From Metalysinibacillus jejuensis (lineage in GTDB: Bacteria > Bacillota > Bacilli > Bacillales_A > Planococcaceae): a stretch of 32,000 bases of DNA. Numbering within the stretch: the first letter of the stretch is position 1; each line of letters opens with the position of its first letter. The stretch lies in the NCBI RefSeq assembly GCF_003057615.1, contig NZ_QAFW01000008.1, forward strand, positions 19,122 through 51,121, given 5' to 3'. Under the pieces are notes generated by a model that searched no databases, had not been told where the DNA came from, and saw only the letters and a list, made by a program, of their open reading frames with translations. A program made the translations under genes and the position numbers. This document shows positions 1 to 31,451 of this stretch, piece after piece.

Positions 1-492
1 GAATTTGCGAAAGCCAACTACCGCTTCAAAACAATTCGTCTTGAACAAGACGGCAGTATGAAAGAACATATGTCTTTTCCGCAAATTGATTTTGACGAAT
101 GGTACAATACACCTTTTGAAGACAGTAGCCTATATGAAATGTTTACAGCGACAACTTGGGTATTTGTCATTTTTGCCACGAATGAGCAACAGCAGCTTTA
201 TTTTAAAGACATCGTGATTTGGCATATGCCTGAAACTATGATTACTACTACCCTTCGTGAGTTTTACCTTGCGACACAAGCTATTTTACAGCAAGGCGTT
301 GTTGTGACACCTATTAAGCGCGGCAACCGCAACAATCTACCTAACGCTAAATTTAATGGCGTGTGCCATATTCGCCCCAAAGCTCGTGATGGTAAAGACA
401 CCGTAACATTACCTTGTGGAGCAGTCATAACAAAGCAGGCGTTTTGGTTAAATAAGGAGTTTATTATAAATTTACTGAATAACAGAAATTAA
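1..492 (+). CDS. Type II restriction endonuclease, MutH/Sau3AI-like, C-terminal part (5' end lies outside the window)
   Basis: Frame 1 is open from base 1 (EFAKANYRFKTIRLEQDGS...), so the ORF is truncated by the window edge. The C-terminal stretch NGVCHIRPKARDGKDTVTLPCGAVITKQAFWLNKEFI resembles the conserved C-terminus of MutH/Sau3AI-family endonucleases. A C5 methyltransferase follows 45-54 bp downstream on the same strand. Confidence 0.55.
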   Translation, partial: EFAKANYRFKTIRLEQDGSMKEHMSFPQIDFDEWYNTPFEDSSLYEMFTATTWVFVIFATNEQQQLYFKDIVIWHMPETMITTTLREFYLATQAILQQGVVVTPIKRGNRNNLPNAKFNGVCHIRPKARDGKDTVTLPCGAVITKQAFWLNKEFIINLLNNRN

Positions 493-527: not shown

Positions 528-545
528 TTTTTTGAGGTGTTATCA

Positions 546-1766
546 ATGAATGTTTTAGATTTATTTGCAGGTGCAGGAGGGTTATCTGAGGGCTTTAAAC
601 AAGCTGGTTTTAATATATCTGCTCATGTTGAGATTGACTCAAATGCATGCGATACATTACGCACTAGAGAAGCTTTTCACTATTTAAAGAGTGTTAACAA
701 GTTGTCTTTATATGAAGATTACTTGCTGAAAAAAATAAATAGAAGTGAATTATATTCGCAAGTGCCTAAATCCATACTTGATAAGGTTATTGAGGAAGAA
801 ATATCTGCTGAATCAATTCCAACAATTTTCAAAAGAATCGATACTATTCTAGGGACTGATACTATAGATATAGTAATAGGTGGACCACCCTGCCAAGCCT
901 ACTCAACAGCGGGTATTTCTAGATGTCCTAATAGGATGCAGAATGACCCACGAAACTATATGTATCTATTTTATAAGCAATTTTTAGTAGAATACCAACC
1001 AAGAATGTTCTTATTTGAGAATGTCAAAGGAATTCTTACTGCGAAAAAAGGAGAAGTTTTTAAAGATTTATTAAACGTTATTGATGAAGCAGGTTACAAT
1101 ATGGAATATAAATTATTAAATGCTAAAGAATTCGGTGTTCCTCAGAATAGAGAGCGTGTTATAATAATAGGTTGGAAAAAAGAGTATAATTTTTCATACC
1201 CTGATTTCAGTAGTAGTTCATTATTAACCGTAGAAGAAGCTCTACAAAATCTTCCAAAAGTTAAAGCGGGTGAGTCACTTACACCTACTAAAATTAAAAA
1301 AATGGGGGCTTCTAATCATCCTTCATTACAATGGATTATGAAAGATAACGTTTTTCTTACACAACACATTGCTAGACCTAACAATTCTATTGATTTAGAA
1401 ATTTACCGCCTAGTTGTTAACGCTTGGAACAACAGGAAGGAAATCCTGATGTATAATGAGATTCCTAAAAGTTTACAGAAACACAAGAATACAAAATCAT
1501 TCTTAGATAGATATAAATCGTTAAAGCCAAAACAAGTGTCTCATACAGTAGTTGCTCATATAGCCAAAGATGGTCATTATTACATACATTATGATATTCA
1601 ACAAAACCGATCTATTACAGTTAGAGAAGCAGCTAGAATACAATCTTTCCCAGATAATTTTTATTTTGAACGCTCTAGAACAGCAGCTTTTACTCAAATA
1701 GGAAATGCAGTGCCTCCGCTGATGGCCTATAAAATTGCAAAAGAGCTCACTCCACTTCTAAAATAG
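546..1766 (+). CDS. DNA (cytosine-5)-methyltransferase
   Basis: Canonical C5-MTase motifs: DLFAGAGGLSEGF (I), GGPPCQAYS (IV), ENVKGIL (VI), QNRERVIIIG (VIII), TVREAARIQSFPD, GNAVPP (X). The ORF track starts at GTG 537, but ATG 546 sits 8 nt after GAGG (534-537) and is the likelier start. Confidence 0.95.
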   Translation: MNVLDLFAGAGGLSEGFKQAGFNISAHVEIDSNACDTLRTREAFHYLKSVNKLSLYEDYLLKKINRSELYSQVPKSILDKVIEEEISAESIPTIFKRIDTILGTDTIDIVIGGPPCQAYSTAGISRCPNRMQNDPRNYMYLFYKQFLVEYQPRMFLFENVKGILTAKKGEVFKDLLNVIDEAGYNMEYKLLNAKEFGVPQNRERVIIIGWKKEYNFSYPDFSSSSLLTVEEALQNLPKVKAGESLTPTKIKKMGASNHPSLQWIMKDNVFLTQHIARPNNSIDLEIYRLVVNAWNNRKEILMYNEIPKSLQKHKNTKSFLDRYKSLKPKQVSHTVVAHIAKDGHYYIHYDIQQNRSITVREAARIQSFPDNFYFERSRTAAFTQIGNAVPPLMAYKIAKELTPLLK

Positions 1767-1783
1767 TGGAATGGGCTCTATAT

Positions 1784-3682
1784 TTATTTAGTCTTTACAT
1801 ATTCAAAAAAGCTCTTATATTCTTGGTCTTGCTCATAAATTGAAATCATACCTCTATCCAAGTATTTGTTAAATTCCTCACATGAAATTTCAGAGATATA
1901 GGCGCAGTTATGACAAGCAGCTCCATTTAAGTAGTCTCGGCCTTGCCCTCTCGACATACCCGCTTCATTACAAACTGGATCTGATGAGCACCACATGGCT
2001 GATTGAATAATTTTGTTCAAAATTCTATCTATATTTTCTTTTTTACCTAACCTTACTAGCCCCCCCATAGTGCCTTCAGAATCTCCAGCTGCAGTATAAA
2101 TTAAAAATCCACTCATTTGCTTCCCGTTGTTTTCACCACAATAGATTCTTTCTTTTAGAGAACTTGAACTATAACCCGAAGATATTACCACTTCTTGAAT
2201 AAACAAATGAGCCAAAGTATGAATCAATATGAATTTAATGTCAACTTTCTCAGACACTTCTATACCATTTGCTTTAGCATTGTTTAAACGTTTCTCTGCT
2301 TGCTGAAATCTCTTAGAATGTCTATATTTTTCTATCCACTCTAATATCAAATCTTCTCTTAATTCAATAAATATGCCTTCACCATATACTTGATAAGCTG
2401 GTAGCCAACTATGTTGCTCAGGGTTGATAAATAAATTTCTTTTACCTTCTTTAATCATTTTTTCTGGATTGTGAGCTAGATTTACAGGTGCTACTAATCT
2501 ATTAAATCCATATAAAACTCTAGTTTCAATTAGCTTGGGTATAAGGTTAACCTTAGATAACCCATACTTCCTTAAACTTTCATCGCCATTAAAATAATTA
2601 TATTCAGGTACAACCTTTAAATCTTTTTCATCTAATAATTCATTTCTCGAAAGATAAACATACTCTTCCAGTTTCAAATTGTATACTTTTTTTCTTTTCA
2701 AAACTTGATTCTCTTTGTAGATAGACAATGCTTTTAACATGAGTTCATCACTATATTTAGATAATTGCGATGAATGTCGCCTTTTTACCTCTGTTACTAT
2801 AATTTCATCTGACATCTTATATTCAGTGAAACTTTCGATGATTTCTCTAATATGTTTACTGTTGAAAAACGCCAATATTCTTTCTATATCTTGAAAGGCT
2901 ATGATAGGTAAATAAATTGCATTTAAAACTTGAGGATAATATGCATTATTTGAATTCTTTAGAATCGGCTGCGGCTTACAATTACATTCTTCTTTTTCAA
3001 TTGCCTCACCGAACCATGGCTTTCTACCACTACATGTATAGATGCTTTCCTTACCTAATGTTTGGCTTAATATCTCAGCTCCATTTGTAGTCAAACCTCG
3101 TAAACTTTTTTCTTTATGGCATTTATTGCACGCAACCTTCATTGTACTTAGAGTTGCTCCCCCAGTAGACTTCAATACTAAGTCTCCTTCACACTCACAC
3201 TCTAATTCTCCGTGTAACCACTCTCTCCAAGGAAAATCGTCTATATGACCATTTTCACAAGCTACCACTAAGGGCACTTGAATCAGCTTAGCAAACTTAT
3301 TATTACACGAAGTACATGTAATTTTACTATCCTTCTCAAAACCATTTTTTCTAGTTAAAACTCGACAACTTGAACAGTAATAATAATTAGGAAACCTTAC
3401 AAATGGTATTGTTAATTTTTCATTAGCATTTTTATTATACTTATCGTAATTTTCTCTATAGTCAGGAGGTAACCTTAATTCTTGCACATTTAATAAATGC
3501 CGTAACCTCTCTTCTTCTATCACAAACTCTGAAATATCGTCCACTTGCTTGAACCATATATCTAAAGCACCTGTCATCATATTAATTCCATCAATATTTG
3601 TATTAAGTGCTCCTACACCGTTAGGGGTAATCAATTCAGACCTTCTCAAAGGTATCACGGCTTCTTTACTTTTATAATTCAT
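1784..3682 (-). CDS. drmB: DrmB-like DUF1998 (MrfA-type zinc-binding) protein
   Basis: C-terminal cysteine cluster WCSSDPVCNE...GAACHNCAYISEISCEEFNKYLDR is typical of DUF1998. Further zinc-ribbon pairs: CSSCRV..(17)..CTSCNN and CNKCHK. The N-terminus PLRRSELITPNGVGA is DrmB-like. Preferred start is ATG 3682 (M20 of the track ORF), preceded by GAGGAGG at 9-nt spacing; it overlaps the drmA-like stop by 11 nt. Confidence 0.8.
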   Translation of the reverse strand: MNYKSKEAVIPLRRSELITPNGVGALNTNIDGINMMTGALDIWFKQVDDISEFVIEEERLRHLLNVQELRLPPDYRENYDKYNKNANEKLTIPFVRFPNYYYCSSCRVLTRKNGFEKDSKITCTSCNNKFAKLIQVPLVVACENGHIDDFPWREWLHGELECECEGDLVLKSTGGATLSTMKVACNKCHKEKSLRGLTTNGAEILSQTLGKESIYTCSGRKPWFGEAIEKEECNCKPQPILKNSNNAYYPQVLNAIYLPIIAFQDIERILAFFNSKHIREIIESFTEYKMSDEIIVTEVKRRHSSQLSKYSDELMLKALSIYKENQVLKRKKVYNLKLEEYVYLSRNELLDEKDLKVVPEYNYFNGDESLRKYGLSKVNLIPKLIETRVLYGFNRLVAPVNLAHNPEKMIKEGKRNLFINPEQHSWLPAYQVYGEGIFIELREDLILEWIEKYRHSKRFQQAEKRLNNAKANGIEVSEKVDIKFILIHTLAHLFIQEVVISSGYSSSSLKERIYCGENNGKQMSGFLIYTAAGDSEGTMGGLVRLGKKENIDRILNKIIQSAMWCSSDPVCNEAGMSRGQGRDYLNGAACHNCAYISEISCEEFNKYLDRGMISIYEQDQEYKSFFEYVKTK

Positions 3683-6600
3683 AGCTTTCTTCCTCCTCTC
3701 TTTCAAAGCTGTTCGTGATAACTCCCTTACATGTAGCATCTACATTTCTCATAGAAGTTAGTACTGGATAAGCAGTTGTTTTTAAATCTTCTGATACATA
3801 GCTTCCATATGGATACATATAGAAGTAATTGTGACTCTTCTTATTCTCTTTCCATAAACTACATTTATCACTAAGTAAGTGTTCAATAATCTCTCTAATT
3901 TTTTGAGCTGCATAGATTTTTATTTCTTCATTTTCATTAACTCTATTCACTCTAGCCATAATCTTTTTAAATATTTCTTCTGTTTCATATTTATATTTAG
4001 AAAGATATTCAGGAGATTCAGCTATGTTCATAGGAAACATTTGTCTTATCCATGCAATAATGACTCCCGGTAAAGAACGATCTATTGATGGCTCCGAAAA
4101 TGGCGTTACACTAGTAGCCTCAACTTGTCTATACAAACTTTGATGATATTCTCTAAAGTGTTCGTAATGAGACTTGTCTCGTGACATCGTAGTTTTATAT
4201 AACGTAAGAACTAAACCAGGTCTCTCATACCAAGAACGACCTACTCGACCACTTACCTGAATATATTGGGCGGTATTTTTAGGCTGACCTATTATGGTCA
4301 TAAGTGATAGCCTCTCAACATCTACCCCGACTTCTATAATATTAGAAGCTAAGCATACATCTACTACCTTTTTATCTGCAGTATGAGACACTTTTAAATC
4401 TTCTAAAGCTTTAGTAACTTCCCTGTTTTGTAATCGAGAAGTTAGTTCTTTTATAGAGTTAATATATCTATAATTTTTGATTAAAGGATGCTTTATCTTA
4501 AATTGTATGCTGTAGTTAGGCATATCGGTTTGGAATAGTGTTAAACTCCCCCCAAGCTCTCTTATACTGTTATAAAAGGCTAAAAGTGTCCAGTAGGGAT
4601 CAGGATTTTCCAAATTGGCAGCAGTTTGTAATAAAGTCGTATTGACTTTAACTTGAAGTTGCTGTGTGCCTATTACATTGCTAGCAATTCCTAAATATTT
4701 CTTACCTGGAGAAGGTCTAAACTCATCACCTTGTTTTATATAATCGACTTGAGCAAAAAAAGAATCTTTATGGGAGAGTCCGGGACTTGGGAAAATACAA
4801 ATACTTTCATTTTTTCTAGCAAATAAAGATTTTATTTGTTGCTTATATCCTGATACTGTAGCAGTAGCACAAATAATTTTTGGAAGAACTGCTTTCTGCA
4901 TTCTGTAATCTGTACACAACTCTTCTACTAGTGCTTCGTAGATGCCTACAGTAGATCCTAAAGGTCCAGATATCAAATGTAATTCATCTTGAATTATTAA
5001 ATTAGGTGGAGCAATAGAGCGTTCTCCATCTAGACCTATTCCAAAAATGTTTCGAGCTTTAGGTTCCCATGCTAACATTGCAAACTTATCTACTGTACCG
5101 ATTAAAAATGTAGGAGGATTTTCATAAATTTGTTCATCAACAATATAAAGTGGTAGCTTTTCATGAAAAGAACACTTTTTGTTAGGACAATGGATAATTA
5201 ACCCTTTATTATTTCTATTTCTCCTATTTGAATCAATTTTATAACCTGCAATTTCCCACTGCTTATTACCCTTCACTACTTTATTAGTAGGGTATCGTTT
5301 CATCTCGCAGCGGCATAGCGGACAATGATTAACAACAAATTCATTTTTAGAATCGCCTGATTTTTTCCAGTCTTTATACTGTTGAATTGCTCTTTCATTT
5401 TTATTAGGTGTATTCTGAGCGCCGACCCATAAACCTATAGAAATTTCATTATTCCCAAAGATTGTTATATTTGCTCTTCTAATTAGTTCTAAGGCACAAA
5501 TAAGTCTTGCAGAACGCTGGAACTGATCAGCAGTGAGTAACCTTAAAGTGTATCTCATAATAATATCTGTTCCATTGTCCTCTTTATCTTTTATCCTTCT
5601 ATATAAAATAGAGAATGCCGCCACACCTAAATATGCTTCGGTTTTTCCTCCTCCGGTAGGGAACCATATTAAATCCACTATTTCTCGCTCGTTAAAATCT
5701 TTAGTAACATCTACCGTAAGTGCAGGTAAACTAATTAGTATAAAAGCAATTTGGAAGGCTCTCCAATTTCCTTTTCCACTACTTAAATATAAATCCCTCA
5801 TTTTTTCTATACTAGGCAAATCTAGAAGTGTTTTACTATCTAAATCAAAATCAATATTTCCGTTAACTTCTTTCATTGCTTGAGGTTCTCCACCTGTTAA
5901 TTGTTGCAAGAACATAGCAGTATTTGTATATTTAAAAGCATTAAAAATATCTTCATTATGCAATAAATCTATACCTTTTTTCATCCTAGTAAGAGAGTAT
6001 TGACATGCTTTTAGGTGTTTTTCAGCAATTGTATGTAAAGCGATGGGGTAGGTTTTTATTTTCTTATTTCTCTCTTGTATCCAGCTAGAATAACTGTCTA
6101 CAATCTTCTCTAGTTCCGCCCTCACCTCATGCTTATTTCCACTAGATAAATTAACCATAGATATTTTTAATAGTTCACCATTTATATCTTTTATATCAGG
6201 TGTTAAATTAGTTGTTTCATGTTCAGGAAGGTATGTTGTTTCTATGATACTAGCATTTTCATTCCAATTAACCGAACAACCATGTCCTAACGCGTAGGTT
6301 TTCGCATCATAATATAAAAGCTCATCACTAAGCTCTTCTTCAGTTTTAGATGAAAAATTCATAAGTACATTCGGGTACGGTTCAAATATACTTTGATCAT
6401 GATAGCTAACTTGTAATTTTGTTTGAAACAAAGTATTTTTGAAGTAAATTTCTTCTCCAGTGGATTGGTTAGTTAAACTTGCCGTTATAAAGTACCCATT
6501 ATTATCAATCTTATCAATCTGTCGGATATTAATTAATAAGGCCAAAGTTAATGTTTTATGTTTAAAAGTTTTAACATAAACACATTTTTCAGGGTTAGTA

Positions 6601-7232
6601 ATTATATTTTCGGCAACAAACTCTATATTTTCTCTTGCCCACCATTTTGTTTTAAAAGGAGGTTGTTTCTCTTCCCCGTTTCGCTTTAGACTAACATCAA
6701 AACCCCTATATACCCCTCCACTAATTTTAAAATTCAAACTCTTTAGTCTATCTTTATTTTGAACAAAAAAAGTGAAAGCTAAACTAGAAGAAACTTTATC
6801 ACTCATCGGATATTCTAAAGGCTCTTCTTCTCTACTGTTGCGCTTTTCGATTTCTTCGATATCTTTATTAGCTGTAAACAGTCTTTCTGCTTCGTCATTT
6901 AGAAGTTGCATATCCTCTTCTATAGCTTCAGTACCATCTACACTTTGGTTTGTCGCATAAGTCTTATCGTTAGGAAAAATCATACCTACAGAGTATTGAG
7001 TAATTGGTGTATTATTGTTACTTATTATTTCCTCTTTGGTTGCTGCATTATAGTAAAACGTGTTGCTTCTTAATTCTTTAGCATCGTAAATAATCTCATT
7101 ATTATCTTTATAGTTGATATTAATAGGAATCATGGTTTCAGTATCTGTTTTAATAGGACCTACTAACTCTTGCTTTAACATATCTATAATTAATTCACGA
7201 TTTAAAAGGTTTTCCTCTAACTTCTTATTCAC
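3672..7232 (-). CDS. drmA: DrmA-like superfamily-2 DExH helicase (1186 aa)
   Basis: Helicase motifs FPTGGGKTEAYLG (Walker A), IIQDELHLISGPLG (DExH), CATAT (III) and QVSGRVGRS (VI). A Cys-rich insertion HCPLCRC...HCPNKKC is present. A roughly 500-aa N-terminal region has no recognisable motif. It lies immediately upstream of, and overlaps, the DUF1998 gene, as in DISARM drmA-drmB. GTG start overlaps the upstream stop by 8 nt. Confidence 0.8.
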   Translation of the reverse strand: MNKKLEENLLNRELIIDMLKQELVGPIKTDTETMIPININYKDNNEIIYDAKELRSNTFYYNAATKEEIISNNNTPITQYSVGMIFPNDKTYATNQSVDGTEAIEEDMQLLNDEAERLFTANKDIEEIEKRNSREEEPLEYPMSDKVSSSLAFTFFVQNKDRLKSLNFKISGGVYRGFDVSLKRNGEEKQPPFKTKWWARENIEFVAENIITNPEKCVYVKTFKHKTLTLALLINIRQIDKIDNNGYFITASLTNQSTGEEIYFKNTLFQTKLQVSYHDQSIFEPYPNVLMNFSSKTEEELSDELLYYDAKTYALGHGCSVNWNENASIIETTYLPEHETTNLTPDIKDINGELLKISMVNLSSGNKHEVRAELEKIVDSYSSWIQERNKKIKTYPIALHTIAEKHLKACQYSLTRMKKGIDLLHNEDIFNAFKYTNTAMFLQQLTGGEPQAMKEVNGNIDFDLDSKTLLDLPSIEKMRDLYLSSGKGNWRAFQIAFILISLPALTVDVTKDFNEREIVDLIWFPTGGGKTEAYLGVAAFSILYRRIKDKEDNGTDIIMRYTLRLLTADQFQRSARLICALELIRRANITIFGNNEISIGLWVGAQNTPNKNERAIQQYKDWKKSGDSKNEFVVNHCPLCRCEMKRYPTNKVVKGNKQWEIAGYKIDSNRRNRNNKGLIIHCPNKKCSFHEKLPLYIVDEQIYENPPTFLIGTVDKFAMLAWEPKARNIFGIGLDGERSIAPPNLIIQDELHLISGPLGSTVGIYEALVEELCTDYRMQKAVLPKIICATATVSGYKQQIKSLFARKNESICIFPSPGLSHKDSFFAQVDYIKQGDEFRPSPGKKYLGIASNVIGTQQLQVKVNTTLLQTAANLENPDPYWTLLAFYNSIRELGGSLTLFQTDMPNYSIQFKIKHPLIKNYRYINSIKELTSRLQNREVTKALEDLKVSHTADKKVVDVCLASNIIEVGVDVERLSLMTIIGQPKNTAQYIQVSGRVGRSWYERPGLVLTLYKTTMSRDKSHYEHFREYHQSLYRQVEATSVTPFSEPSIDRSLPGVIIAWIRQMFPMNIAESPEYLSKYKYETEEIFKKIMARVNRVNENEEIKIYAAQKIREIIEHLLSDKCSLWKENKKSHNYFYMYPYGSYVSEDLKTTAYPVLTSMRNVDATCKGVITNSFEREEEESYEL

Positions 7233-8784
7233 AGTCTCCTTCTACCTCTTCTCTATTAAAATAAATTAACGTCCCTACCCTACTAAGAGGAACTTGATAA
7301 ACTTTGCTGGATATTCTTTTAACTTTGTAAATATTTACTTTAAACATTTCTAGTTGCGGAATATACATATATCCTTTGCTTTCTAACTGCTCAGTTATTT
7401 CAGGATTATTTTTTAATTCTTTTCTAAGCTCTGACCTCACTTGCCGTCCTAGTTGATTGTGATACTTTGTAAGATTATCACTAACCTTTTTAAACTTAAG
7501 AGCCTCACTTTTACTTTTAGTAAAAAATTCTAATAGCTTTAAAAAATCATTGTTATTTTGCAGTTTAAAAGTCTCTTTTTTAGTCAATCCTACTAATTGA
7601 TAAGTTTTCAAATTTAGATTAAGTCTTTTATTGATGTAATTCGTATACTCATCAGGTCCATATTTCATCAATAATTGTGATAAGTATTTTTTAAATTTTT
7701 CAAGACGCTTTCTATCATCCTTTATTCCTTTATCCTCAAAATATTGATCTGCTAGTCTTTTTCTATCTTCCCATCTATTGAAATCCATAGAGATAATAAA
7801 ATCATTAGTATTAATTTCATTAATATGCTTTCTTGCATAGATATATTCTGAATTTAATACATCACACTTGGCTTTTTCACCTACATCTTCAAAAATAAAA
7901 CCACCCTCTTCTAATTCAATTAATCTGCAAGGAAGCATACTTTGTTGCAAGTCTCTCTCTCTTCCAATTAATAGAGGCACAAGTAGTTCAGGAAACTCAT
8001 CTTCTACTAAAAAAGTTTTTTCCGTAGAGGATGTTTCAATAGGTAATTTTTTAATACTTGGAATTTTAACAGTTTGGATATTCCATATGAAATCCTTGTC
8101 GATATTTTTGACTCTAGGGCTCTCAATCCAAGGAACATATTCTAATCTTCCATAAAAACAATTAAAGTAAATGAAATAAAAATTATCAGCATTTAGATAT
8201 TGGAACGAGTCTATAGAAAAGAGCGATGGAGTGCCGAGAAAAATTACATTATCATACATTTTTATATCTCGGGTAAAATCTCTAAATGTTATAAACTCTA
8301 ACAGATGATGTGGATAAAAATCTGCAATTTTACTTTCCACTTTTTCTTGAAGTGGTTTTTTTGTAACAATTACATATTTACGTGATGTATATTTAATGAT
8401 TTCTTTTAGAGCTTTATTATAAGGATGATAGGATAGCTTTAATATATAGTTTATATATTGTTCTATATTGCTATAGGTATTCCAAGTACCTAAATATTTT
8501 TCACAAATGCCCTTTAACTTTTGGATATAGTGACTCAATTCTTGTTCATGTTCCAAGGAAAACACAAGAGGCTCGGTTCCATAGGAAAAAAGAAATTTCT
8601 TAATTTCGTAATCTAATAATAGGATGTTTTCATGATTAATATTCTCTCCTAAATCTTTTCTTATAGTTGCAGCAATGTTCATTAAGTTCTTATAAGGAGA
8701 AAATTCGATTTCCACACCTGTATAGGTTGGCTTCCTAAGCTTAATAACTTTATAAATTTGATTAAATTCATCGATTGCAATCAT
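7225..8784 (-). CDS. Hypothetical protein (about 519 aa), third gene of the DrmAB-containing operon; possible DrmE-like C-terminal part
   Basis: Long uninterrupted ORF. ATG 8784 is preceded by GGGAGGTGG and forms an ATGA start/stop overlap with the upstream gene. No catalytic motif recognised by eye. Confidence 0.7.
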   Translation of the reverse strand: MIAIDEFNQIYKVIKLRKPTYTGVEIEFSPYKNLMNIAATIRKDLGENINHENILLLDYEIKKFLFSYGTEPLVFSLEHEQELSHYIQKLKGICEKYLGTWNTYSNIEQYINYILKLSYHPYNKALKEIIKYTSRKYVIVTKKPLQEKVESKIADFYPHHLLEFITFRDFTRDIKMYDNVIFLGTPSLFSIDSFQYLNADNFYFIYFNCFYGRLEYVPWIESPRVKNIDKDFIWNIQTVKIPSIKKLPIETSSTEKTFLVEDEFPELLVPLLIGRERDLQQSMLPCRLIELEEGGFIFEDVGEKAKCDVLNSEYIYARKHINEINTNDFIISMDFNRWEDRKRLADQYFEDKGIKDDRKRLEKFKKYLSQLLMKYGPDEYTNYINKRLNLNLKTYQLVGLTKKETFKLQNNNDFLKLLEFFTKSKSEALKFKKVSDNLTKYHNQLGRQVRSELRKELKNNPEITEQLESKGYMYIPQLEMFKVNIYKVKRISSKVYQVPLSRVGTLIYFNREEVEGDCE

Positions 8785-9695
8785 CTTTCCACCTCCCAAG
8801 TTGCATAACTTATGTATTTCGGTATTGTTATATTAATGAGATTTGAAGTTAATATAGAGCTTTCTACATTACTATCTAAGTAATCTACTATATCTACTAG
8901 ACTCTCTGTTTCATTTATATTTGACATATTAGGACTGTATAAAATAACAGAAGAATAATTAGCTAACTCCGGATAAAAGTAATAGTAAGCGTCTAAGTCT
9001 GCGTAAATGATTATAGTATTATGAGGTAATTCATTTAACTCTAGTTGACTTTGAGAGGAATAAATATCTGTAAGATAGTAAGATTGTTTTGGAAGAAAAG
9101 AGTGCAAAAGTAACCACGAGCTTAACTCTAAATTATCTATTTTTAAGTTGGCTTCTCTTTCAATCCTTTTTTTATTTCCTATAATAACTATTTTGTGGCT
9201 ATTTAGCCTTGCTATTTTATCTACTTCTTCACTATAAAATTTTTTAATTAATTCTAGTTCTTTGTTTTGAAGAGCTCTAGCTTTAGTATAATTAATATTT
9301 TCATTTGCTATTCTTATTTTTTCTCTCCATAGTTTTCCTACTGTAATCTTTGTAGGATTTTTTTTCATATCTTCAATTTGAATTTTATCTCCAATTTGTT
9401 GAAGAAATTTATAAGGTTGCTCTTTTTCATTTTTTAACGATTTATAGTAAACTACTGTTTCATTTGGTACTAATTTGTCTAAAATATCTTCACTCTCAAT
9501 TTTATTACTATATATCTCATCTGCTATACCTAACGCAATAAAATAATAAAGATAGTTTGAATAGGGCACATGTAATATTATATTATGGACTTTTTCATCG
9601 TTAATTACTTCTTTGCCATAGATTCTTCCCAACTGTAAATAAAAACTTCCCCAATTCATAGAGGACGAAATATTTTCAATATCTTTAAAATACAT
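8781..9695 (-). CDS. Hypothetical protein (about 304 aa), first gene of the DrmAB-containing operon
   Basis: Long ORF. ATG 9695 lies downstream of an AGAAAGAAGTGGGTG SD-like stretch; the ORF track starts at GTG 9707. No recognisable motif. Its stop overlaps the next start (ATGA). Confidence 0.65.
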   Translation of the reverse strand: MYFKDIENISSSMNWGSFYLQLGRIYGKEVINDEKVHNIILHVPYSNYLYYFIALGIADEIYSNKIESEDILDKLVPNETVVYYKSLKNEKEQPYKFLQQIGDKIQIEDMKKNPTKITVGKLWREKIRIANENINYTKARALQNKELELIKKFYSEEVDKIARLNSHKIVIIGNKKRIEREANLKIDNLELSSWLLLHSFLPKQSYYLTDIYSSQSQLELNELPHNTIIIYADLDAYYYFYPELANYSSVILYSPNMSNINETESLVDIVDYLDSNVESSILTSNLINITIPKYISYATWEVER

Positions 9696-9736
9696 ACTTT
9701 CACCCACTTCTTTCTTAAAATGAATACGCTACCAGA

Positions 9737-9767: not shown

Positions 9768-9908
9768 CTATAAATGTAGGCACTCGTAAATACAGTATAG
9801 ATTTCCATTTATTAAACTCTTGGTCACAAAGATTTACTTTTTATTAGCTTAAAGATAGGTTTAGATTCTATCACCACTCATTATATTGCATCCACAAAGT
9901 GTTTTTAA

Positions 9909-10865
9909 TTATGAGTCTTGAATGATTTCTTGCAATTTTTGAATGCTCAAAACATTATCATATCTTCGATGAACCATGCGATGACAGTTAGCACATAGTG
10001 GTACTAGGTCTGTTACGGGATCAATAGCTTCTGGCTCTTCTAGCGTATGAAGTGGTTGAACGTGGTGAATTTCAATATAGTTTTTGCCATGTTCGCCGTA
10101 CTTTTCTTCAAATAAAAATCCACAGCCTACACAACGCACACCATGAACAGCAATTGCTTTTTTACGATTAGCAAAACTTCTTTCGTAGCGACTACCGTAA
10201 TAGTATGTGACCGCACCTTCTTTAATAATACCTTCTTCAACATCCTTACTTTCTTCGTCTGCTAATAATTCATCATCTGAAATAGCAATATCTTCTTCAG
10301 CTAGTTTCAAATAACTCACGTAGGTTTTCACCATCTTATTTGCATCCGCATACGCCTCACCTGCTTCTTCTAGTAGCTCAATGAGTTGTTCATGCGTTTC
10401 TCCTTCAAATAAACCTCTGTAATCTGCCTTCATTCCAAAGTAATAAAGCAAATTAGCGGAAACGCGCCCTTTTGTGTTGCCATTATGTCCAAGCACATTA
10501 ATATCTAACCAGCGATGAGGACGATTGTGCACAAGGTGCTCTACAATAACTCTACCTTTTAACAAATTAGGGTGTTGCAAATATTCACGCTTTCTTCCTG
10601 AAGGCTTTAGCAATGGCAATGTATATGTATTTCCTACTGTGATAGGATGACCACCTAAATAAGAGTAGTAGTAATGCATAGCTTGTTGCTGCTCTTTACT
10701 TACTTTTTGCTCAATTATTTGGGCTAATTGTTCAAGCTTATTAATATTCAATAAATTATCTTGAGTAGCTCCCCAGCTCTCTAAGTGATTTAAGCATGTC
10801 TCAATATCATTCGCTGTTAATGAAGTATGGCCCATTAACCATTCGCTAAAGGCTTGTCTATTCAT
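9909..10865 (-). CDS. HNH endonuclease with an uncharacterised N-terminal domain of about 220 aa
   Basis: C-terminal McrA-like HNH module: CVGCGFLFEEKYGEHGKNYIEIHHVQPL...DLVPLCANCHRMVHRR. The N-terminal two thirds have no recognisable motif. ATG is preceded by AAGGGGA. Confidence 0.85.
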   Translation of the reverse strand: MNRQAFSEWLMGHTSLTANDIETCLNHLESWGATQDNLLNINKLEQLAQIIEQKVSKEQQQAMHYYYSYLGGHPITVGNTYTLPLLKPSGRKREYLQHPNLLKGRVIVEHLVHNRPHRWLDINVLGHNGNTKGRVSANLLYYFGMKADYRGLFEGETHEQLIELLEEAGEAYADANKMVKTYVSYLKLAEEDIAISDDELLADEESKDVEEGIIKEGAVTYYYGSRYERSFANRKKAIAVHGVRCVGCGFLFEEKYGEHGKNYIEIHHVQPLHTLEEPEAIDPVTDLVPLCANCHRMVHRRYDNVLSIQKLQEIIQDS

Positions 10866-10964: not shown

Positions 10965-11140
10965 TATTAAGATTGGTTCATCGGTAACTGACTAAGGTCT
11001 TGACTTCTCCCACCCCTAAAGGAGTGGGATTCCAAAGGAGATTGATTCTAACGAACCCTTATCCGAAAGCACACATTAAACAATGCGTACTCTTTGAGGG
11101 TGAGCCAAGCACCCTTTAGCTTGTAAGATACGTGTATCTA
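10965..11140 (-). ncRNA. Predicted TnpB-associated omega (right-end) RNA scaffold; extent approximate
   Basis: By established TnpB biology, the guide RNA scaffold overlaps the 3' end of tnpB and the RE. This interval contains the strong hairpin TCCCACTCC-TTTA-GGGGTGGGA on the minus strand. No covariance check was possible. Confidence 0.35.
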
Positions 11141-12338
11141 TCAAGTTACTTTTGCGTAAAATATTTAACGCTCCGTTTATATCGGCATTGACAAGTATGC
11201 CTTTAGCGGTTTGATATAAGCCTCGCTTGATACGCTTCCCTGAAAATGACATGTTTTGTTTTTCCGCTGTCCACACTGGTAAAGCATCATTATCAAAGAA
11301 ACTCGCCTTACTTGTATAACTTTCCTCTTGCTCTACATAGTTAATGCCGTAATGCTCACATAGGTTATACAAATATTCACGCAATAAACCGAACGGAATT
11401 TGTGTGAATTGTTGGTTGTTCTTCTTCCCTAAATTCAGTCCACGCTTAAAGTCCTTGTTATAGCCAATGACAAGCGTTCCAATCTGTTGCCCTTTACATA
11501 GTTCAATAATGGAACGAGCAACTTTCCTCATGTAGTCCTTCACACGATTATTTCGCTTTATATCCATACTCGCTAACCTATTTGTATATTTCATGCCTTG
11601 CTTTATGGCGATTGATTGATACTTTGCCTTTTGTTTGTTGTAGTAATGGTTGATTGATTTTAAAGGTTTTCCATCGTACAAATACGATAGCCCATCACTT
11701 GTAACACAAGTAGCTACATTGTTTAAGCCAATATCAATGCTCATAGCCTTTTCTTTGTCCAGCATTACTGTTTCAAATGGTTGTTCGTATACATAGTGAA
11801 TGTCAAAGCGTTTGCCTTTCGCCTTTGGAATAATGCGTACTTCCTTTAATGTTTTCCCAACTAATTGTGGTGGGAATTTTATCTTAATTTCTTTTAATCC
11901 ACTTTTCTTTTTGTAGGCATTTGAAAGTGGTATGAAAAAATAACCATCTTTCACACGAATCGCATTTGTGCTTAAAATTAAAGGGAATAGTCCGTCTTTC
12001 GCTAAATACTTAGGTATTTTTACATCTTGAAAACGGTATTCACCTTGTTTTGCCTTCTTCATAAGATTGAAAAAGGATTTGAAACTACGGTCTACAACCT
12101 TTAAAATTTGTTGGGAAATACCCGCTTGCAATAGCTTATAGTTTTCATTATGTTTAGCAACATGATAATTTGACTCATACGTTAAAAACGACTTTTCTGT
12201 GAAGTAATGTTGCCTTATATTATACAAACTGACATTATACAAATTTTTACTAATACTACAAAGCTCTCGTAATACTCGATACTCTTGTTTTGTTAAACCT
12301 TTCATTCGATTTACTTGTGTTTTAAATGTTTTGTCCAT
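11076..12338 (-). CDS. tnpB: RNA-guided endonuclease TnpB (IS605 OrfB family)
   Basis: RuvC-like triad in the expected order: MSIDIGLNNVA (D), EQEESYTSKASF (E), VNADINGALNILRK (D). The N-terminal LTKQEYRVLRELCSISKNLYNVSLY helix region is typical of OrfB. Strong RBS AAGGAGGTG. Confidence 0.9.
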   Translation of the reverse strand: MDKTFKTQVNRMKGLTKQEYRVLRELCSISKNLYNVSLYNIRQHYFTEKSFLTYESNYHVAKHNENYKLLQAGISQQILKVVDRSFKSFFNLMKKAKQGEYRFQDVKIPKYLAKDGLFPLILSTNAIRVKDGYFFIPLSNAYKKKSGLKEIKIKFPPQLVGKTLKEVRIIPKAKGKRFDIHYVYEQPFETVMLDKEKAMSIDIGLNNVATCVTSDGLSYLYDGKPLKSINHYYNKQKAKYQSIAIKQGMKYTNRLASMDIKRNNRVKDYMRKVARSIIELCKGQQIGTLVIGYNKDFKRGLNLGKKNNQQFTQIPFGLLREYLYNLCEHYGINYVEQEESYTSKASFFDNDALPVWTAEKQNMSFSGKRIKRGLYQTAKGILVNADINGALNILRKSNLIDTRILQAKGCLAHPQRVRIV

Positions 12339-15107: not shown

Positions 15108-16306
15108 GCCGTTTAAATGTATGTTAATTGTGTTGTAATTTGTATTGTTTTTAGCGTTTTCTCCCCGTCATCCGAACCTGTATAGCAGAGTAATGTGCTA
15201 TTCTTTTTAATTCTTTACGAAACAGTCCTTAAATTATTGACTGTGGTGTTGTTCGATTTTTGACACGCTGAAATAAGCATTTGCTCAACTCGTTTTTCAA
15301 ATGCTAAATTCTTCCCTAATTCAAGCCAACGAAACCAGTAAAGGTAATTATCCAAGTATTTCGTTGCAACCCCTTAAAACCTTTCCATCCAAGTCTTCAA
15401 GCGGTTATGAAAGTTATTGACGTGTTGAATATGGTATATGCCTTTCTTTACACGCTGTTTCTGTCGTTCATTGACCGTTTCGTGCTGTAATCCCTTTATT
15501 TTGGCGAATTTTTTATAATTTGTTGCTGTATCCGTACATAACAAAGCAGACGGGTGAATATACTCACCTATCACTGTGTCAATTTCTTCGGCTTTAACAC
15601 GACCTGTTCCAGCTTTTCGAGCAATCACACTACCGTTGCGGTCTTGGGCTACAACAACAGCAATTTTAAGGTTTGAAATACCTCTTTTCTCGTCTTTCTC
15701 ACCACGCTTCTTGGGTTTTCTGTGGATGATTTCGCTACCTTTCATAGACTCACGAAAGAAGGTTTCGTCACTTTCAACGATACCTTGCAATTGATTAAAC
15801 CCAAGACTGCCTAATGCGTTCAAGATTTTATGCCTCCAATAGAAAGCGGTAGAGATATGAATTTCTAAACGTTCAGCGATTTTTGGCAGAGTATATCCTT
15901 CAACCATTAGTTCAATGTACTTTACCCACTTTTCAGGGTAGCGAGAGCCTGAAAATGGGGTGTTCGTCATATCATTGAAAGATTTCCCGCAATCATTACA
16001 TAGATAGCGTTGTCTCGAACGATATTTACCGTTCCGCTTAACCGATGTGCTTCCGCAATGAACACAGCCTAAACCAGAGGCAAATCGGGCTTCACGAATG
16101 CTTTTGAGTAGTTTAGTAATTTTATCTGGTTCATCTGGAAACAAGTCTTGTTTCATCGCATTAAATAACGCCATTTGCTCTGATTTGGTCAATTCACTGA
16201 AATCTTCATAAACATCTTCCCACATACTTGAACGCCTCCTTAAACCCCATTATATCAACCTTTTAACAGTATGGTCAAGAAAGCCACAATCTATACGAAA
16301 ACAGCC
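15108..16306 (-). mobile_element. IS1595-family insertion sequence (ends approximate)
   Basis: Contains an IS1595-type transposase. The termini are imperfectly inverted: GGCTGTTTTCGTATAGATTGTG (revcomp of ~16285-16306) versus GCCGTTTAAATGTATGTTAATTGTG (~15108-15132). No clear direct repeats seen. Confidence 0.55.
15215..16225 (-). pseudogene. IS1595-family transposase interrupted by an in-frame TAA (track ORF 15374..16225; the frame continues to 15215)
   Basis: N-terminal zinc ribbon CVHCGSTSVKRNGKYRSRQRYLCNDCGKSF. DDE-type core VESDETFF ... LCTDTATNY ... HVNNFHNRLK. After ...WMERF comes TAA (15376-15374). The same frame then reads GVATKYLDNYLYWFRWLELGKNLAFEKRVEQMLISACQKSNNTTVNNLRTVS*, the usual conserved C-terminus. 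Confidence 0.8.
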
Positions 16307-19725: not shown

Positions 19726-21777
19726 TTAGTCAACAAAAATCACTTTTTGCATAAGCATTTGATTATTCTGATAAAATGGTACATCTGTATTTCCAAGAAC
19801 TGTTGGAGGAACATTTGAGAGTTCATTAAGGTTATCCATCGGGACAACAACGCTCCTTGCACCGTTCTCGGACAACATTGTCACTTTGTCAGCAAAATTA
19901 GTTACTCGTTCAATCGCTCCACCTATAGAAATATTTCCTAGTACTGCAAGGCCGGGCTTTAGATTCTTTTTATAAAGTGCTGAAATAATCGCAACATAGA
20001 CTGCTGAACCTATACCTGATGAGATACCAGCTCCTAATAAGTTCGTGACTTGAATAGTGATGTCGTAATTTTTTAACGAATGTTTATCACTCAAGATCGT
20101 CGTCTCGTTAGCTTTTATATACTGGTATGTATTTTTAATATTTTCTTTTACACCTATATTATTTACACCAGTTATATTTAATTTCCCTGATCCGACTACT
20201 ATTGCTGTTTCAATTCTCACTAAAGCAACATTTTCACCATCACTTGTACTTGTATAACAAACACCTGGTGACAAAGGGGTACTTTCGATAAGATTTGATC
20301 CTTTTTCTTCAGGTAAGCCAACAAAAAATTCTTCTTGTGTTTCCTTGTCAATATAAGAAAAATTCGTATCCCAAAACTCCATACCGCCGATACGCTTCAA
20401 TTGCTCTTTCACTCGACGACGCATCTCTAACGCTATTTCTAAATATTCTTTAACATCGTCTTTTGTATATTCTCCATCAGGATGCATTAATTTTATAAAA
20501 CCTGACACTGTCTTTTTAACAGGTTTAGTATCACGTTGTTTCAAATGTGATCCAAGAGAATAAAATTTTTCAACTACATCCGTGTATGTTACACGTCTTA
20601 ATGATTTTAACGACTCAGAAAAATAGTCTGTACTAAAACCAAAACTTGATGTGAAATGTTGTGGAGCAAATTTTATCATCTCCCAACCTGGAAGATAGAA
20701 ATGGATCCTGTCAAGAAACGCTGTATCATTTTTCACTTCATCTGAAAGCGGACTAAACAGATGTGATGTTTGCAAGACTGTTTCAACAGGTTGATTGATA
20801 TTACCATTTAAGATGATAGAAGCAACTCCCGTTATTTCACCGCCAGCACCGGCTCGTGAGAAAGAACCAGATTCCATATAATCTTTCATTAATGGAACAG
20901 CATCTCTATCTTTAAAAATCTTATCCGTTGCCTCGTCAAAACAAATCGCATCCCATTGTCCTACTGCTCCAACTTTACCAGTTGATCCATGGACGAATAA
21001 CTTTGCAACAGTTCCTTGACCACCAGAAATCAATACTGCATAAGGTGTCAATTCTTTAAACACAAAAGATTTACCAGTAGAACGTGGTCCAAGTTCGATA
21101 AAATTGAAATTTGATTCTACCATAGGAAGTAATCTTGATAATAGAAGCATTTTAGTTCTATAATTCATGCCCTCAGCATTCGGCTCATAACCACAACTTC
21201 TTAATATAATGTCGAGCCATTCACTCTTTGTAAATTCTTTACGTTTATTAATAATCTTAGTATTATCAAAGCTAGACAACTGAATAGGCTTTATTTCTGT
21301 AATTACAAAAGGGAAAATATTTTGACCAACTTTTATATTAGGGTCATATTCTACATCGACTATTGCCCAAATCCCCCCCATTAATAACTTCTCATGTTGT
21401 TTCACAAGAGCATCACTAATATTTCCGTCTTTAATATTTATATTTTGTAACTTTGCCCAGTAAACATCCTTTTTTGAATCTAATTCAACCGATATTTTAT
21501 CAATAATTTTAAAGCGACCTCTCTCACGAATCCTAGATTGGATTAAAGTGCTTTCTTCTGGGTTAACGTAATGTTCACTTAGTACCTTTTTAACATTTTC
21601 CATACCGATTCTAATTTTTTCATCATCATCTGTTGAACAAGAATTCGCTATTAAAAACTCTAATACAAACACAGGAACATTCGCTCCAACTTTTACAGAA
21701 CGAACGAGATCCTTCTTTACAACAAATCCTCGGAAATGATCTAGTAACTTTTTATCTAAGTCATCCAATATAACCAT
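19726..21777 (-). CDS. brxL: BREX Lon-like protease BrxL
   Basis: AAA-type Walker A IELGPRSTGKSFVF. C-terminal Lon-protease-like domain. About 683 aa. Last gene after pglZ. ATG 21777, 8 nt after GGAGG, is preferred over track GTG 21792. Confidence 0.9.
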   Translation of the reverse strand: MVILDDLDKKLLDHFRGFVVKKDLVRSVKVGANVPVFVLEFLIANSCSTDDDEKIRIGMENVKKVLSEHYVNPEESTLIQSRIRERGRFKIIDKISVELDSKKDVYWAKLQNINIKDGNISDALVKQHEKLLMGGIWAIVDVEYDPNIKVGQNIFPFVITEIKPIQLSSFDNTKIINKRKEFTKSEWLDIILRSCGYEPNAEGMNYRTKMLLLSRLLPMVESNFNFIELGPRSTGKSFVFKELTPYAVLISGGQGTVAKLFVHGSTGKVGAVGQWDAICFDEATDKIFKDRDAVPLMKDYMESGSFSRAGAGGEITGVASIILNGNINQPVETVLQTSHLFSPLSDEVKNDTAFLDRIHFYLPGWEMIKFAPQHFTSSFGFSTDYFSESLKSLRRVTYTDVVEKFYSLGSHLKQRDTKPVKKTVSGFIKLMHPDGEYTKDDVKEYLEIALEMRRRVKEQLKRIGGMEFWDTNFSYIDKETQEEFFVGLPEEKGSNLIESTPLSPGVCYTSTSDGENVALVRIETAIVVGSGKLNITGVNNIGVKENIKNTYQYIKANETTILSDKHSLKNYDITIQVTNLLGAGISSGIGSAVYVAIISALYKKNLKPGLAVLGNISIGGAIERVTNFADKVTMLSENGARSVVVPMDNLNELSNVPPTVLGNTDVPFYQNNQMLMQKVIFVD

Positions 21778-21840
21778 AACTACCGCCTCCACTCACCACA
21801 AATACATACTCTTTAGAAATTTCATTTGATTCGTAAATCC

Positions 21841-24078: not shown

Positions 24079-24091
24079 AACTCAGACCCCC

Positions 24092-27000: not shown

Positions 27001-27811
27001 GTAATGGTTTGATTGCTCTTTCCTTTGCTTGAGGAGGATTGGCGATTTTGTAACGGTTTTTAATTTCGGAATCTGGGTACATTTCTAGATAAATTTTCCC
27101 AAGTGAATTTTCTACTAAAAACTTCACTACCCACTGCGGTGTATATACTTGTGATTGTAGTGATACCTTGTTAAATTCTGTTTTATCACCACTATCCTTA
27201 TGCATTTTTTTCTTGTTATTGTTATAGCTTTCATATAGCCAACCAAGAACATCATCACTTGACCAAATGGCCGCATCTACTTGAGCATCTTTTTCTACTT
27301 CGTTAAATGCGTCGATGATTTCATTTAAACTAATCGCATCAGGTAACAAGCCGTATGGATAAGTATTACTGTAAAGCAGAAGATTGCTTCCTAGCTCATT
27401 AAATGCATATTCAATATACTCTCGAATTCCTTCTAGTTCCTCTGAACGCATATGTGGGTTAATCTCAAGCCACGCTTTATGTCCAAAAGAACGATCACCA
27501 TGCTCCGATAGTTTTGTTAACACAGGTGCAAATAGTGACGAAGCCTCCATTACTTTTACAGCTGCTAAACGATTAAATAATGTAAAAGTTAACTCATCTA
27601 TTAATTTTTCTCGTGCGCCTTCATAATTTCCTATCTCACTTAGATGAGATTCGAGCAACTCTTCAAAACGCACTCGATTCGTTCTATGTTCTAACGGTAG
27701 TTTCTCAATTTCAATTTGTTTCTTTTTCCCAATACCTAAACGAGATAAATTTTTATCGTAAGCTGCTTCAATCAGATTTCTAATTGAATCTACATGTTCC
27801 GAAAGCTTCAT
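24092..27811 (-). CDS. pglX: BREX type 1 N6-adenine DNA methyltransferase PglX
   Basis: SAM-binding LIDPACGSGNF and catalytic ATANPPYTD (NPPY). 1239 aa, the typical PglX size. Flanked by brxC and pglZ. Confidence 0.92.
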   Translation of the reverse strand: MKLSEHVDSIRNLIEAAYDKNLSRLGIGKKKQIEIEKLPLEHRTNRVRFEELLESHLSEIGNYEGAREKLIDELTFTLFNRLAAVKVMEASSLFAPVLTKLSEHGDRSFGHKAWLEINPHMRSEELEGIREYIEYAFNELGSNLLLYSNTYPYGLLPDAISLNEIIDAFNEVEKDAQVDAAIWSSDDVLGWLYESYNNNKKKMHKDSGDKTEFNKVSLQSQVYTPQWVVKFLVENSLGKIYLEMYPDSEIKNRYKIANPPQAKERAIKPLHEIKLIDPACGSGNFMLYAFDFFYELYIDQIDNHDGEYDKKDIPKLIIENNLHGIDLDDRAVQLAQLGLFIKAKKKRRTIGELSYNVVSSDFYLPDYSSVKHIFTEGNNLDSKQQDLIEEVWSDLQHAYKFGSLIRLDEKLKSRLSEVQGKIDAGEFTLFTSAFLTEEENFSTTFFKNLKTAVELYAQTKGSSFLTSKTKDAITFLELLTTEYDVATANPPYTDSADFGTELKKFVEDNYKKPYKFHTNLYATFIKRCFDLVGENGFVAMLHPLTFMYIKTFEDVRKFILTETNINLLVELGLGGVFSNSDVQVDVVMYVLEKGKTETEGTYFDLKKYKNHTNKPEIFSEIYDNFVSGLLEAHSYTISQTKLKIIKSWPFIYWISDDFREKFTEKTVDDYLGVRVGLKTGNNNRFLRFWWEVSSDGETSKNDKWFPYSKGGSYQKWSGNLWAVVNWKNDGEEIIEWCKYLNTINTPGGIAVNRKYYFREGITYSASGSKGVSFRYLPEGCIFDVGGSSIFIEGDFDNVYYFLAFLNSKIIYFIANCLNPTVNIQVGDIKRIPVIIPTQDSEKFITSLSKKNIEIQDKIFTNSLVEKTYKRSPLESREGKFSAKDNLKRYLNYENHLLTQVLINEAIINEKIFEIYDLTEKDKAMVLEGEGESIGSLPVLPDARTSYLAETEATKGFPLHEIRYFIDSLPTREFTFEEREKVTSSFPNLYNGNNNLEEFCIHHHVNPINVWYWFKQSNVIPQQRMHSLAMEFLVNMIREILMEDEDGIIPLVPNAGEKEMQNRIEEKFREKGFSSAQYTSFYTVLGYSIHDYLNKYLFAELSDHLKLFKQLPATPFIWHLSSGPEQGFDCYIIIYKWSRDKLMRLRSVYIEHRERSLVNRQSDLAGNESAEAQNEKDRIFKQLKEIEAFKEKIDELLSEGYNPILDDGVGKNIAPLQKKGMIPYAVLNAGQLKKYLNADW

Positions 27812-27826
27812 TAGTTACCATCCTAT

Positions 27827-31441: not shown

Positions 31442-31451
31442 ATAGCTTCCC

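Follow-up and report, generated by a model that had tools for sequence, protein, structure and literature searches.

A class 2-type DISARM locus of Metalysinibacillus jejuensis with DrmE apparently encoded as two polypeptides

Introduction

[quoted passage not shown] This question is raised by a 32,000-nucleotide stretch of the Metalysinibacillus jejuensis genome (contig NZ_QAFW01000008.1, positions 19,122 to 51,121; hereafter the window, in whose own coordinates all positions are given). A preliminary description of the window, made from its letters alone, had offered two readings, i.e., a reduced or rewired class 2 DISARM, or an undescribed system built on DrmA and DrmB (DrmAB). The analysis presented here supports the first, whereas homology to DrmE speaks against the second. 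Overall, we estimate at about 80% the probability that the locus is a class 2-type DISARM made up of DrmE, DrmA, DrmB and the methylase DrmMII, without DrmC, in which DrmE is produced as two translationally coupled polypeptides. To judge from its sequence, the operon is a variant of a known system and not a new system.

Class 2 DISARM was reportedly described by Ofir et al. in 2018, with DrmC counted as core. For the Bacillus paralicheniformis 9945a type, the components are given as DrmE, DrmA, DrmB, DrmC and DrmMII (bioRxiv 10.1101/2021.12.28.474362; PMC9252829). The locus shares with this class a short-type DrmA, a DUF1998 DrmB, a DrmE homologue upstream of drmA, a DrmMII-type C5 methylase and a defence-island setting. 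Unlike the described class, its DrmE corresponds to two genes (304 and 519 aa), the phospholipase D (PLD) nuclease DrmC is absent, and its methylase gene is convergent rather than in the operon and is paired with a Sau3AI/MutH-family enzyme.

DrmA and DrmB at the distal end of the operon

The last two genes of the operon are the most readily identified. On the minus strand, drmA (3672-7232) encodes, from a GTG start at 7232, a 1186-aa short-type DrmA, a DExH helicase of superfamily 2 (SF2), while drmB (1784-3682, minus strand) encodes 632 aa from an ATG at 3682, within an open reading frame (ORF) at 1784-3739, and corresponds to the DUF1998/MZB zinc-cluster partner of DrmA. The 1186-aa protein matched NCBIfam DISARM_DrmAS (E 1.5e-264; 881 bits, for an equivalog cut-off of 950 bits), PADLOC DrmA (5e-205) and chain A of PDB entry 7S9V, the solved Serratia DrmA (3e-128), and it carries GGGKT, DELH and QVSGRVGR motifs. 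The 632-aa protein scored 426.6 bits with NCBIfam DrmB_fam, over the 240-bit cut-off, and matched PADLOC DrmB (4.6e-74) and chain B of 7S9V (4e-66), with Cys clusters corresponding to Pfam MZB/DUF1998. The assignment of this pair to DrmA and DrmB is thus secure at the level of sequence, and the earlier proposal that the two distal genes form the DISARM core holds. The matches to 7S9V are to a class 1 DISARM (Serratia sp. SCBI; 7S9V/7S9W), and this homology of the DrmA-DrmB core supports a common core mechanism, i.e., loading on unmodified DNA with 5' single-stranded ends.

The two upstream proteins as probable parts of DrmE

The two proteins encoded ahead of drmA had been described as unrecognisable, and direct searches agree as far as they go: neither the 519-aa nor the 304-aa protein matched any Pfam, PADLOC or NCBIfam family, even at E 1 to 10, and nothing was found for either among PDB sequences. 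As regards DrmE, the PADLOC negative is uninformative, its detection of bona fide DrmE being unconfirmed and the protein in the DrmE position of the L. plantarum system having been missed too. The family profiles tell otherwise, linking both proteins to DrmE, and in the right order.

This was clearest for the 519-aa protein. An exhaustive hidden Markov model (HMM) search of a library of 1.8 billion proteins, seeded with the three closest sequences, yielded 32 representative proteins, all but two of them 494-537 aa long (30/32). Fifteen of the 35 members of this family matched NCBIfam DrmE_fam (NF038316; best 3.6e-27), always at profile positions ~331-838 of 838, and three of the 35 matched the DISARM_DrmE equivalog (NF038323); the DrmE halves of the window are nearer to the former than to the latter. 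One protein, P0014, provides a two-step link, with 3e-30 to the profile of the window family and 4.7e-19 to DrmE_fam (positions 336-832 of 838). For comparison, 80 metagenomic DrmA loci were fetched (L016-L095), in which the HMM of the 519-aa family picked out two populations, stand-alone proteins of ~505-540 aa and proteins of 851-885 aa in which the matching region covers residues ~338-861. Reference proteins of the longer type are bona fide DrmE_fam across the whole model, with E-values down to 2e-208. In a profile-profile comparison (hhalign), the 519-aa family aligned to full-length DrmE with 99.9% probability and E 2.9e-33, columns 16-514 corresponding to DrmE columns 348-870. On these alignments, the 519-aa protein, here DrmE-C, appears to be the C-terminal two-thirds of DrmE, i.e., residues ~340-860 (~520 residues).

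The structural comparison that had been proposed for the two proteins was informative for this one, if only in part. An AlphaFold2 model of the 519-aa protein, with a predicted local distance difference test score (pLDDT) of 86, begins with a helical bundle, continues through an alpha/beta domain and a beta-rich middle, and ends in a helical region. Searching PDB and BFVD with this model by Foldseek returned weak matches, nearly all to domain 2 of helicase RecA-like folds (E of at least 4e-4, query TM-score at most 0.22). The model therefore suggests DrmE-C as a degenerate helicase-like scaffold as a lead and not as a finding.

The evidence for the 304-aa protein is less direct. Of 30 stand-alone ORFs of the C-terminal type, 29 directly follow another ORF on their strand, mostly one of ~304-355 aa, and usually overlap it slightly; jackhmmer started from the 304-aa protein gathers these upstream ORFs of DrmA loci into one family. 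Jackhmmer runs from the 304-aa protein and from full-length DrmE gave no bridge between this family and the DrmE N-terminus. With hhalign, an initial comparison of the family with full-length DrmE gave 93% probability, and improved alignments (30 sequences compared with 25 full-length DrmE sequences) gave 95.3% and E 2e-8 over 204 columns, in N-to-N register (columns 17-233 with DrmE columns 36-244). Controls were clean: a reversed DrmE alignment gave 0.5% probability, five column-shuffled queries gave at most 0.4%, and the N-terminal family compared with the C-terminal family gave 0.1%. The 304-aa protein, here DrmE-N, would accordingly be the N-terminal third of DrmE (~245 residues). Together, the two proteins amount to 304 + 519 = 823 aa, compared to the 838 positions of the DrmE_fam model, and the break near residue 335 probably marks a domain boundary in DrmE. 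The DrmE expected of a class 2 DISARM is hence present in split form, at family-profile level only. A direct comparison with the 801-aa protein of L. plantarum was also tried and dropped, as BLASTP showed no similarity between it and the window proteins; by hhalign, the 801-aa protein is a divergent DrmE (95.9%).

Several observations weigh against a DISARM with a two-part DrmE. Neither the 304-aa nor the 519-aa protein alone reaches any curated DrmE threshold, and as single sequences compared with the DrmE profile they gave 18% (DrmE-N) and 82% (DrmE-C) probability, so that it is the family-level profiles that carry the assignment to DrmE. For DrmE-N, the last ~70 residues lack a confident alignment, and the AlphaFold model of this protein had a pLDDT of 38, because its alignment held only four sequences, and thus gave no structural confirmation. 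In addition, the score of DrmA falls slightly under the NCBIfam equivalog cut-off.

The same paucity of direct matches is what would be expected of an undescribed DrmAB-based system whose two upstream genes encode novel accessory or effector subunits with no relation to DrmE, and DrmAB pairs do join other partners, among them AAA ATPases, UvrD/NERD helicases and a sigma-factor-like protein. This alternative is nevertheless largely refuted and in our view highly improbable, since profile-profile comparisons and transitive HMM links connect the two proteins with DrmE, both order and register being right and the controls clean. Several DrmA-DrmB pairs on plasmids were indeed seen without DrmE (L013, L014, L015 and L008), accompanied by an AAA ATPase and a protein of unknown type, by a very large sigma-70-like protein, by UvrD/NERD helicases and DarT, or by a SNF2-like class 1 set.

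Recurrence and stability of the split

If DrmE is encoded in two parts, the arrangement may be an established one or the remnant of a broken gene. Pairs of an N-type ORF abutting a C-type ORF (about 320 + 515 aa) beside DrmA/DrmB were found in 25 non-redundant loci, compared to 27 loci with full-length DrmE, and both halves are intact in lineages as distant as Bacillales, Nostoc and Rhodococcus. This recurrence indicates a stable gene arrangement, not a frameshift. Closer to the window, the complete four-gene cassette was found in a Lysinibacillus genome (39-46% identity, both DrmE halves intact) and in Metalysinibacillus (74-82%), which settles in the affirmative the earlier question of whether the same architecture recurs in other genomes. 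On plasmids of four genera, DrmAB is flanked by remote homologues of both upstream proteins. They lie downstream rather than upstream of drmB in Bacillus toyonensis, and also occur beside DrmAB in Bacillus sp. FDAARGOS_235, Priestia megaterium and Nostoc. The two proteins are, by these searches, rare and always accompany DrmAB: word-indexed homologue searches with them returned only 3-4 close relatives, to which a profile search with alignment A2 added none, and a scan of a genome collection with DrmA returned one locus only. Our literature search found no paper on a split DrmE.

The junctions within the operon are equally consistent with an intact arrangement. It consists of four translationally coupled genes on the minus strand, spanning 1784-9695. 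The first, drmE-N (8781-9695, minus strand), encodes 304 aa from an ATG at 9695 (the ORF 8781-9707 encodes 308 aa from a GTG), and the second, drmE-C (7225-8784, minus strand), 519 aa from an ATG at 8784 (ORF 7225-8799). These two are joined by an ATGA overlap at 8784-8781 with a Shine-Dalgarno sequence, GGGAGGTG, ahead; drmE-C and drmA overlap by 8 nt (7225-7232), with the Shine-Dalgarno sequence GAAGGAG ahead of the GTG at 7232, and drmA and drmB by 11 nt (3672-3682), with AGGAGGA ahead of the ATG at 3682. Read directly, the ORFs and the three junctions agree with the preliminary description, in which all four genes already overlapped at each junction. A consensus scan marked a promoter-like site (TTAAAA-17-TATAAT, 9880-9908, minus strand) upstream of drmE-N and a terminator-like hairpin (1748-1773, minus strand) directly past the drmB stop, both of which are pattern matches only.

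A decaying, non-functional DISARM, whose DrmE a frameshift or nonsense mutation had disrupted, fits these data poorly, and we give it very little credence. Some observations do point that way: DrmE is cut elsewhere in single metagenome contigs (L067, L094, L077 and L058), into 267|600, 477|397, 553|303 and 424|383 aa, which may be real alternative splits, pseudogenes or assembly errors, and one Lysinibacillus-like contig (L003) has a broken drmA. By contrast, the split at ~335 is conserved over 25 loci that span different phyla, where each half is intact and evolves under constraint, the drmE-N/drmE-C junction combines a strong Shine-Dalgarno sequence with a stop-start overlap, and the four reading frames of the window are intact and of full family length.

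The neighbouring methylase and its restriction enzyme

Next to the operon, a gene for a C5 cytosine methyltransferase of the DrmMII clade (537-1766, plus strand; 409 aa) converges on drmB, with 17 nt from stop to stop. On its own strand it is preceded by part of a Sau3AI/MutH-family type II restriction endonuclease gene (1-492, plus strand), of which the window holds the C-terminal 163 codons; this gene extends past the window's left edge, has no stop codon in its frame within 1-57, and ends 44 nt ahead of the methylase start. The endonuclease fragment matched positions 317-473 of the 475-position NCBIfam profile restrict_Sau3AI (4e-37), and a full-length 449-aa orthologue in two fetched loci (L004/L005) matched Pfam MutH (2.8e-37). 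The methylase therefore stands beside a Sau3AI/MutH-family endonuclease, as in Sau3AI-type type II restriction-modification (R-M), with which the pair shares its gene order, its 44-nt same-strand spacing and a C5 methylase of about 410 aa.

The affinities of the methylase itself lie with DISARM. Its best PADLOC model is DrmMII (PDLC02649; full length, 6e-160), compared to 1e-106 for the best generic type II methyltransferase model, and it matched Pfam DNA_methylase with 4e-72. Of all the C5 methylases encoded in the fetched loci, its nearest relatives that are not orthologues share 47-52% identity with it along the full length and head operons with full-length DrmE (L044-L046, L049, L053 and L029), ordered methylase-(AIPR)-DrmE-NERD helicase-DrmA-DrmB. 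With the methylase of the DISARM on an L. plantarum plasmid, the identity is 45%. No Sau3AI-like gene was found in the full-length-DrmE loci carrying its nearest relatives, so that, unlike a Sau3AI-type R-M methylase, its closest kin in the gathered data belong to DISARM operons without such an endonuclease. We conclude from these comparisons that the methylase belongs to the clade of DISARM-locus methylases, which puts a DrmMII of class 2 type on the strand opposite to drmB, 17 nt away, and that it would be common to, or borrowed from, a Sau3AI-type R-M pair. The preliminary description had seen an opposite-strand methylase paired with a different nuclease. The Sau3AI/MutH-family neighbour bears out the pairing, but the clustering with DrmMII, by both PADLOC and its 47-52% relatives, does not let the enzyme be set apart from DISARM. 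It had also held that, were the upstream ORFs DrmE and the methylase a relative of DrmMII, the locus would be an ordinary class 2 DISARM; this is essentially what we find, with the twist that DrmE comes in two genes.

The methylase differs from the rest of the locus in its conservation. It is 96.8% identical to its Metalysinibacillus orthologue (L005:13452-14681), compared to 62-82% for the other genes of a collinear 10.6-kb block, which points either to unusually strong constraint, as would suit a methylase that protects self, or to a recent exchange confined to this gene.

In one alternative, the DrmE/DrmA/DrmB cassette would need no dedicated methylase, the C5 enzyme serving the Sau3AI-family endonuclease alone within a shared defence island. 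The position of the methylase would fit: it lies 44 nt downstream of its own restriction enzyme gene, on the strand opposite to the cassette, an arrangement that also counts against a DISARM including DrmMII. The same holds for cassette relatives on four plasmids (L006, L007, L009 and L012), where no C5 methylase lies within ~7-8 kb of fetched flank, so that dependence of the cassette on a methylase is not proven. Moreover, the nearby methylase of the Lysinibacillus locus is part of a different, LlaJI-type restriction system, and a methylase is present in the fetched DNA of only 16 of the 25 split-DrmE loci, a count that is a lower bound since many flanks are short. Set against this are the 47-52% identity to in-operon methylases ahead of full-length DrmE in loci without a Sau3AI-like gene, the best PADLOC match to DrmMII, and the collinearity of the whole HNH-drmE-drmA-drmB-methylase-restriction enzyme block with Metalysinibacillus at 80% nucleotide identity. 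Class 2 DISARM also needs its methylase to avoid toxicity (bioRxiv 10.1101/2021.12.28.474362). On balance, we regard a methylase-independent cassette as unlikely and retain the reading in which DrmMII is part of the system.

The genes beside related methylases are varied. In a sample of six other DrmE loci, four matched restriction-endonuclease families (MvaI/BcnI twice, EcoRII-C, and AspBHI_N with Mrr_cat), a fifth was an AAA_5 (McrB-like) ATPase and the sixth was without a match, while annotated relatives add LlaJI and NaeI/Vsr enzymes. A methylase common to DISARM and a type II enzyme may thus be frequent in this clade. Loci with such diverse neighbours include L038, L047, L043, L034, L028, L001 and L011. 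Two broader proposals were discarded: a Sau3AI-like enzyme is not a general DISARM partner, as it is absent from full-length-DrmE loci, and the ~410-aa genes beside methylases are not one family.

Absent and additional components

The preliminary description had found neither a PLD nor a SNF2 gene nearby, and we likewise detected no PLD and no SNF2 domain in any window ORF of at least 139 aa. On that evidence the window holds no DrmC, which the PADLOC definition of type II DISARM requires. Its absence had been taken as a departure from described DISARM, a point that lapses, since the literature describes DrmC as not needed for defence and frequently lacking in DISARM operons (PMC9142583; bioRxiv 10.1101/2021.12.28.474362). 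The locus does not qualify as class 1, where an SNF2 protein DrmD and an N6-adenine methylase DrmMI stand next to DrmABC. Unlike that class, the window has no DrmD and no DrmMI, its only N6 methylase being the PglX of a BREX (bacteriophage exclusion) system 14 kb away, and it has DrmE, which the PADLOC definition of class 1 prohibits.

Among the closest settings is that of the metagenomic loci with full-length DrmE (e.g., L044 and L053, ordered methyltransferase-DrmE-NERD/UvrD helicase-DrmA-DrmB), which share with the window the DrmA/DrmB clade (33-37% identity), the methylase clade (47-52%) and a homologous DrmE. They differ from it in having a single DrmE of 851-885 aa, in most cases a ~580-aa NERD and UvrD-like helicase, in some an AIPR protein, and in none a Sau3AI-like enzyme. 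The extra ~580-aa helicase gene occurs in 17 of the 25 split loci as well as in most full-length-DrmE loci, either between drmE and drmA or after drmB, and is missing from the window and its closest kin. Across the fetched loci L016-L095, a single family of ~560-600 aa, combining a NERD (nuclease-related) domain, a superfamily 1 (SF1) ATPase and UvrD_C, accompanies DrmE/DrmA/DrmB in about 50 of 80 (e.g., L017:6256-7998). To our knowledge, this family lies outside the published gene list of class 2. The NERD/SF1/UvrD_C protein is a candidate effector. Another recurrent gene, for a ~680-aa AIPR (abortive infection phage resistance) protein, lies between the methylase and full-length DrmE in L045, L046, L049, L055 and L043 (e.g., L046:1588-3633).

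A possible mode of action

Published work on DISARM describes self-marking, autoinhibition of DrmAB and its loading on unmodified DNA with 5' single-stranded ends (PMC9142583; bioRxiv 10.1101/2021.12.28.474362). Transferred to this locus, the C5 methylase would mark host DNA as self, and DrmA-DrmB, autoinhibited beforehand, would load on unmodified invading DNA, especially at 5' single-stranded ends, after which its ATPase/translocase activity would block phage replication. DrmE, which published work suggests to be an essential class 2 accessory, would presumably be rebuilt from its two chains. From its adjacency to the Sau3AI-family enzyme, the methylase may in addition shield the host from that enzyme, with one methylase thereby serving two restriction arms.

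A bolder version would have the DISARM cassette and the type II R-M pair form one composite system, with a single methylase marking self for both arms. We consider this distinctly doubtful. Speculatively, restriction cuts in an unmethylated invader would then make the ends on which DrmAB loads, the restriction enzyme would stand in for the 'missing' nuclease where DrmC and the NERD helicase are both lacking, and DrmE would be a degenerate helicase-like adaptor able to work as two chains. Such a composite is supported by the diversity of restriction enzymes beside the methylase in other DrmE loci (MvaI/BcnI, EcoRII, AspBHI/Mrr, LlaJI and NaeI-type). Established enzymology gives 5' overhangs for Sau3AI and EcoRII and 1-nt 5' overhangs for MvaI and BcnI.

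A class 2-type DISARM whose DrmE is split leaves the basic picture of DISARM unchanged, and its main value lies in annotation and in a handle on DrmE. Because PADLOC, NCBIfam and Pfam miss split DrmE, such loci are probably called incomplete or "other" DISARM. If so, the spread of class 2 DISARM is underestimated, a gap in annotation that two new profiles, for DrmE-N and DrmE-C, would mend. The natural break also offers two separately expressible pieces of a protein of unknown function, while the methylase-adjacent restriction enzymes and the frequent NERD/UvrD-like helicase suggest a possible source of DISARM nuclease activity.

Setting within a defence island

The window as a whole appears to be a defence island holding BREX, DISARM and type II R-M, and the operon's earlier placement among other defence genes is supported by a type 1 BREX system (BrxL, PglZ, PglX), an HNH endonuclease and the Sau3AI-family R-M pair. 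The GC content of the DISARM block is 0.275-0.35, compared to 0.44-0.46 for argG/argH, in keeping with the AT-richness relative to these genes noted previously; the BREX genes at 19.7-32 kb are as AT-rich as the DISARM block.

Some 200 nt upstream of drmE-N, and likewise on the minus strand, is the gene for the 318-aa HNH endonuclease (9909-10865), which has a promoter-like site of its own. Metalysinibacillus has this gene in synteny (62% identity), but the other DrmE loci lack it, and its product was on that account rejected as a general DISARM partner; the protein may act as an independent nuclease or be an accessory particular to the lineage.

Between the DISARM block and argH/argG lie a TnpB/IS605 OrfB-type gene (11076-12338, minus strand; OrfB_IS605 5e-25, with a Cas12f1-like TNB domain) and an IS1595-family transposase gene (15374-16225, minus strand), which together fit a mobile or recombination-prone island. 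The type 1 BREX system occupies 19726-32000 on the minus strand, with BrxL at 19726-21792 (Pfam BrxL_ATPase 4e-129), PglZ at 21841-24078 and the N6 methylase PglX at 24092-27811. Next after PglX come ORFs of 1204 and 182 aa, neither with a Pfam match, in the positions of BrxC and BrxB.

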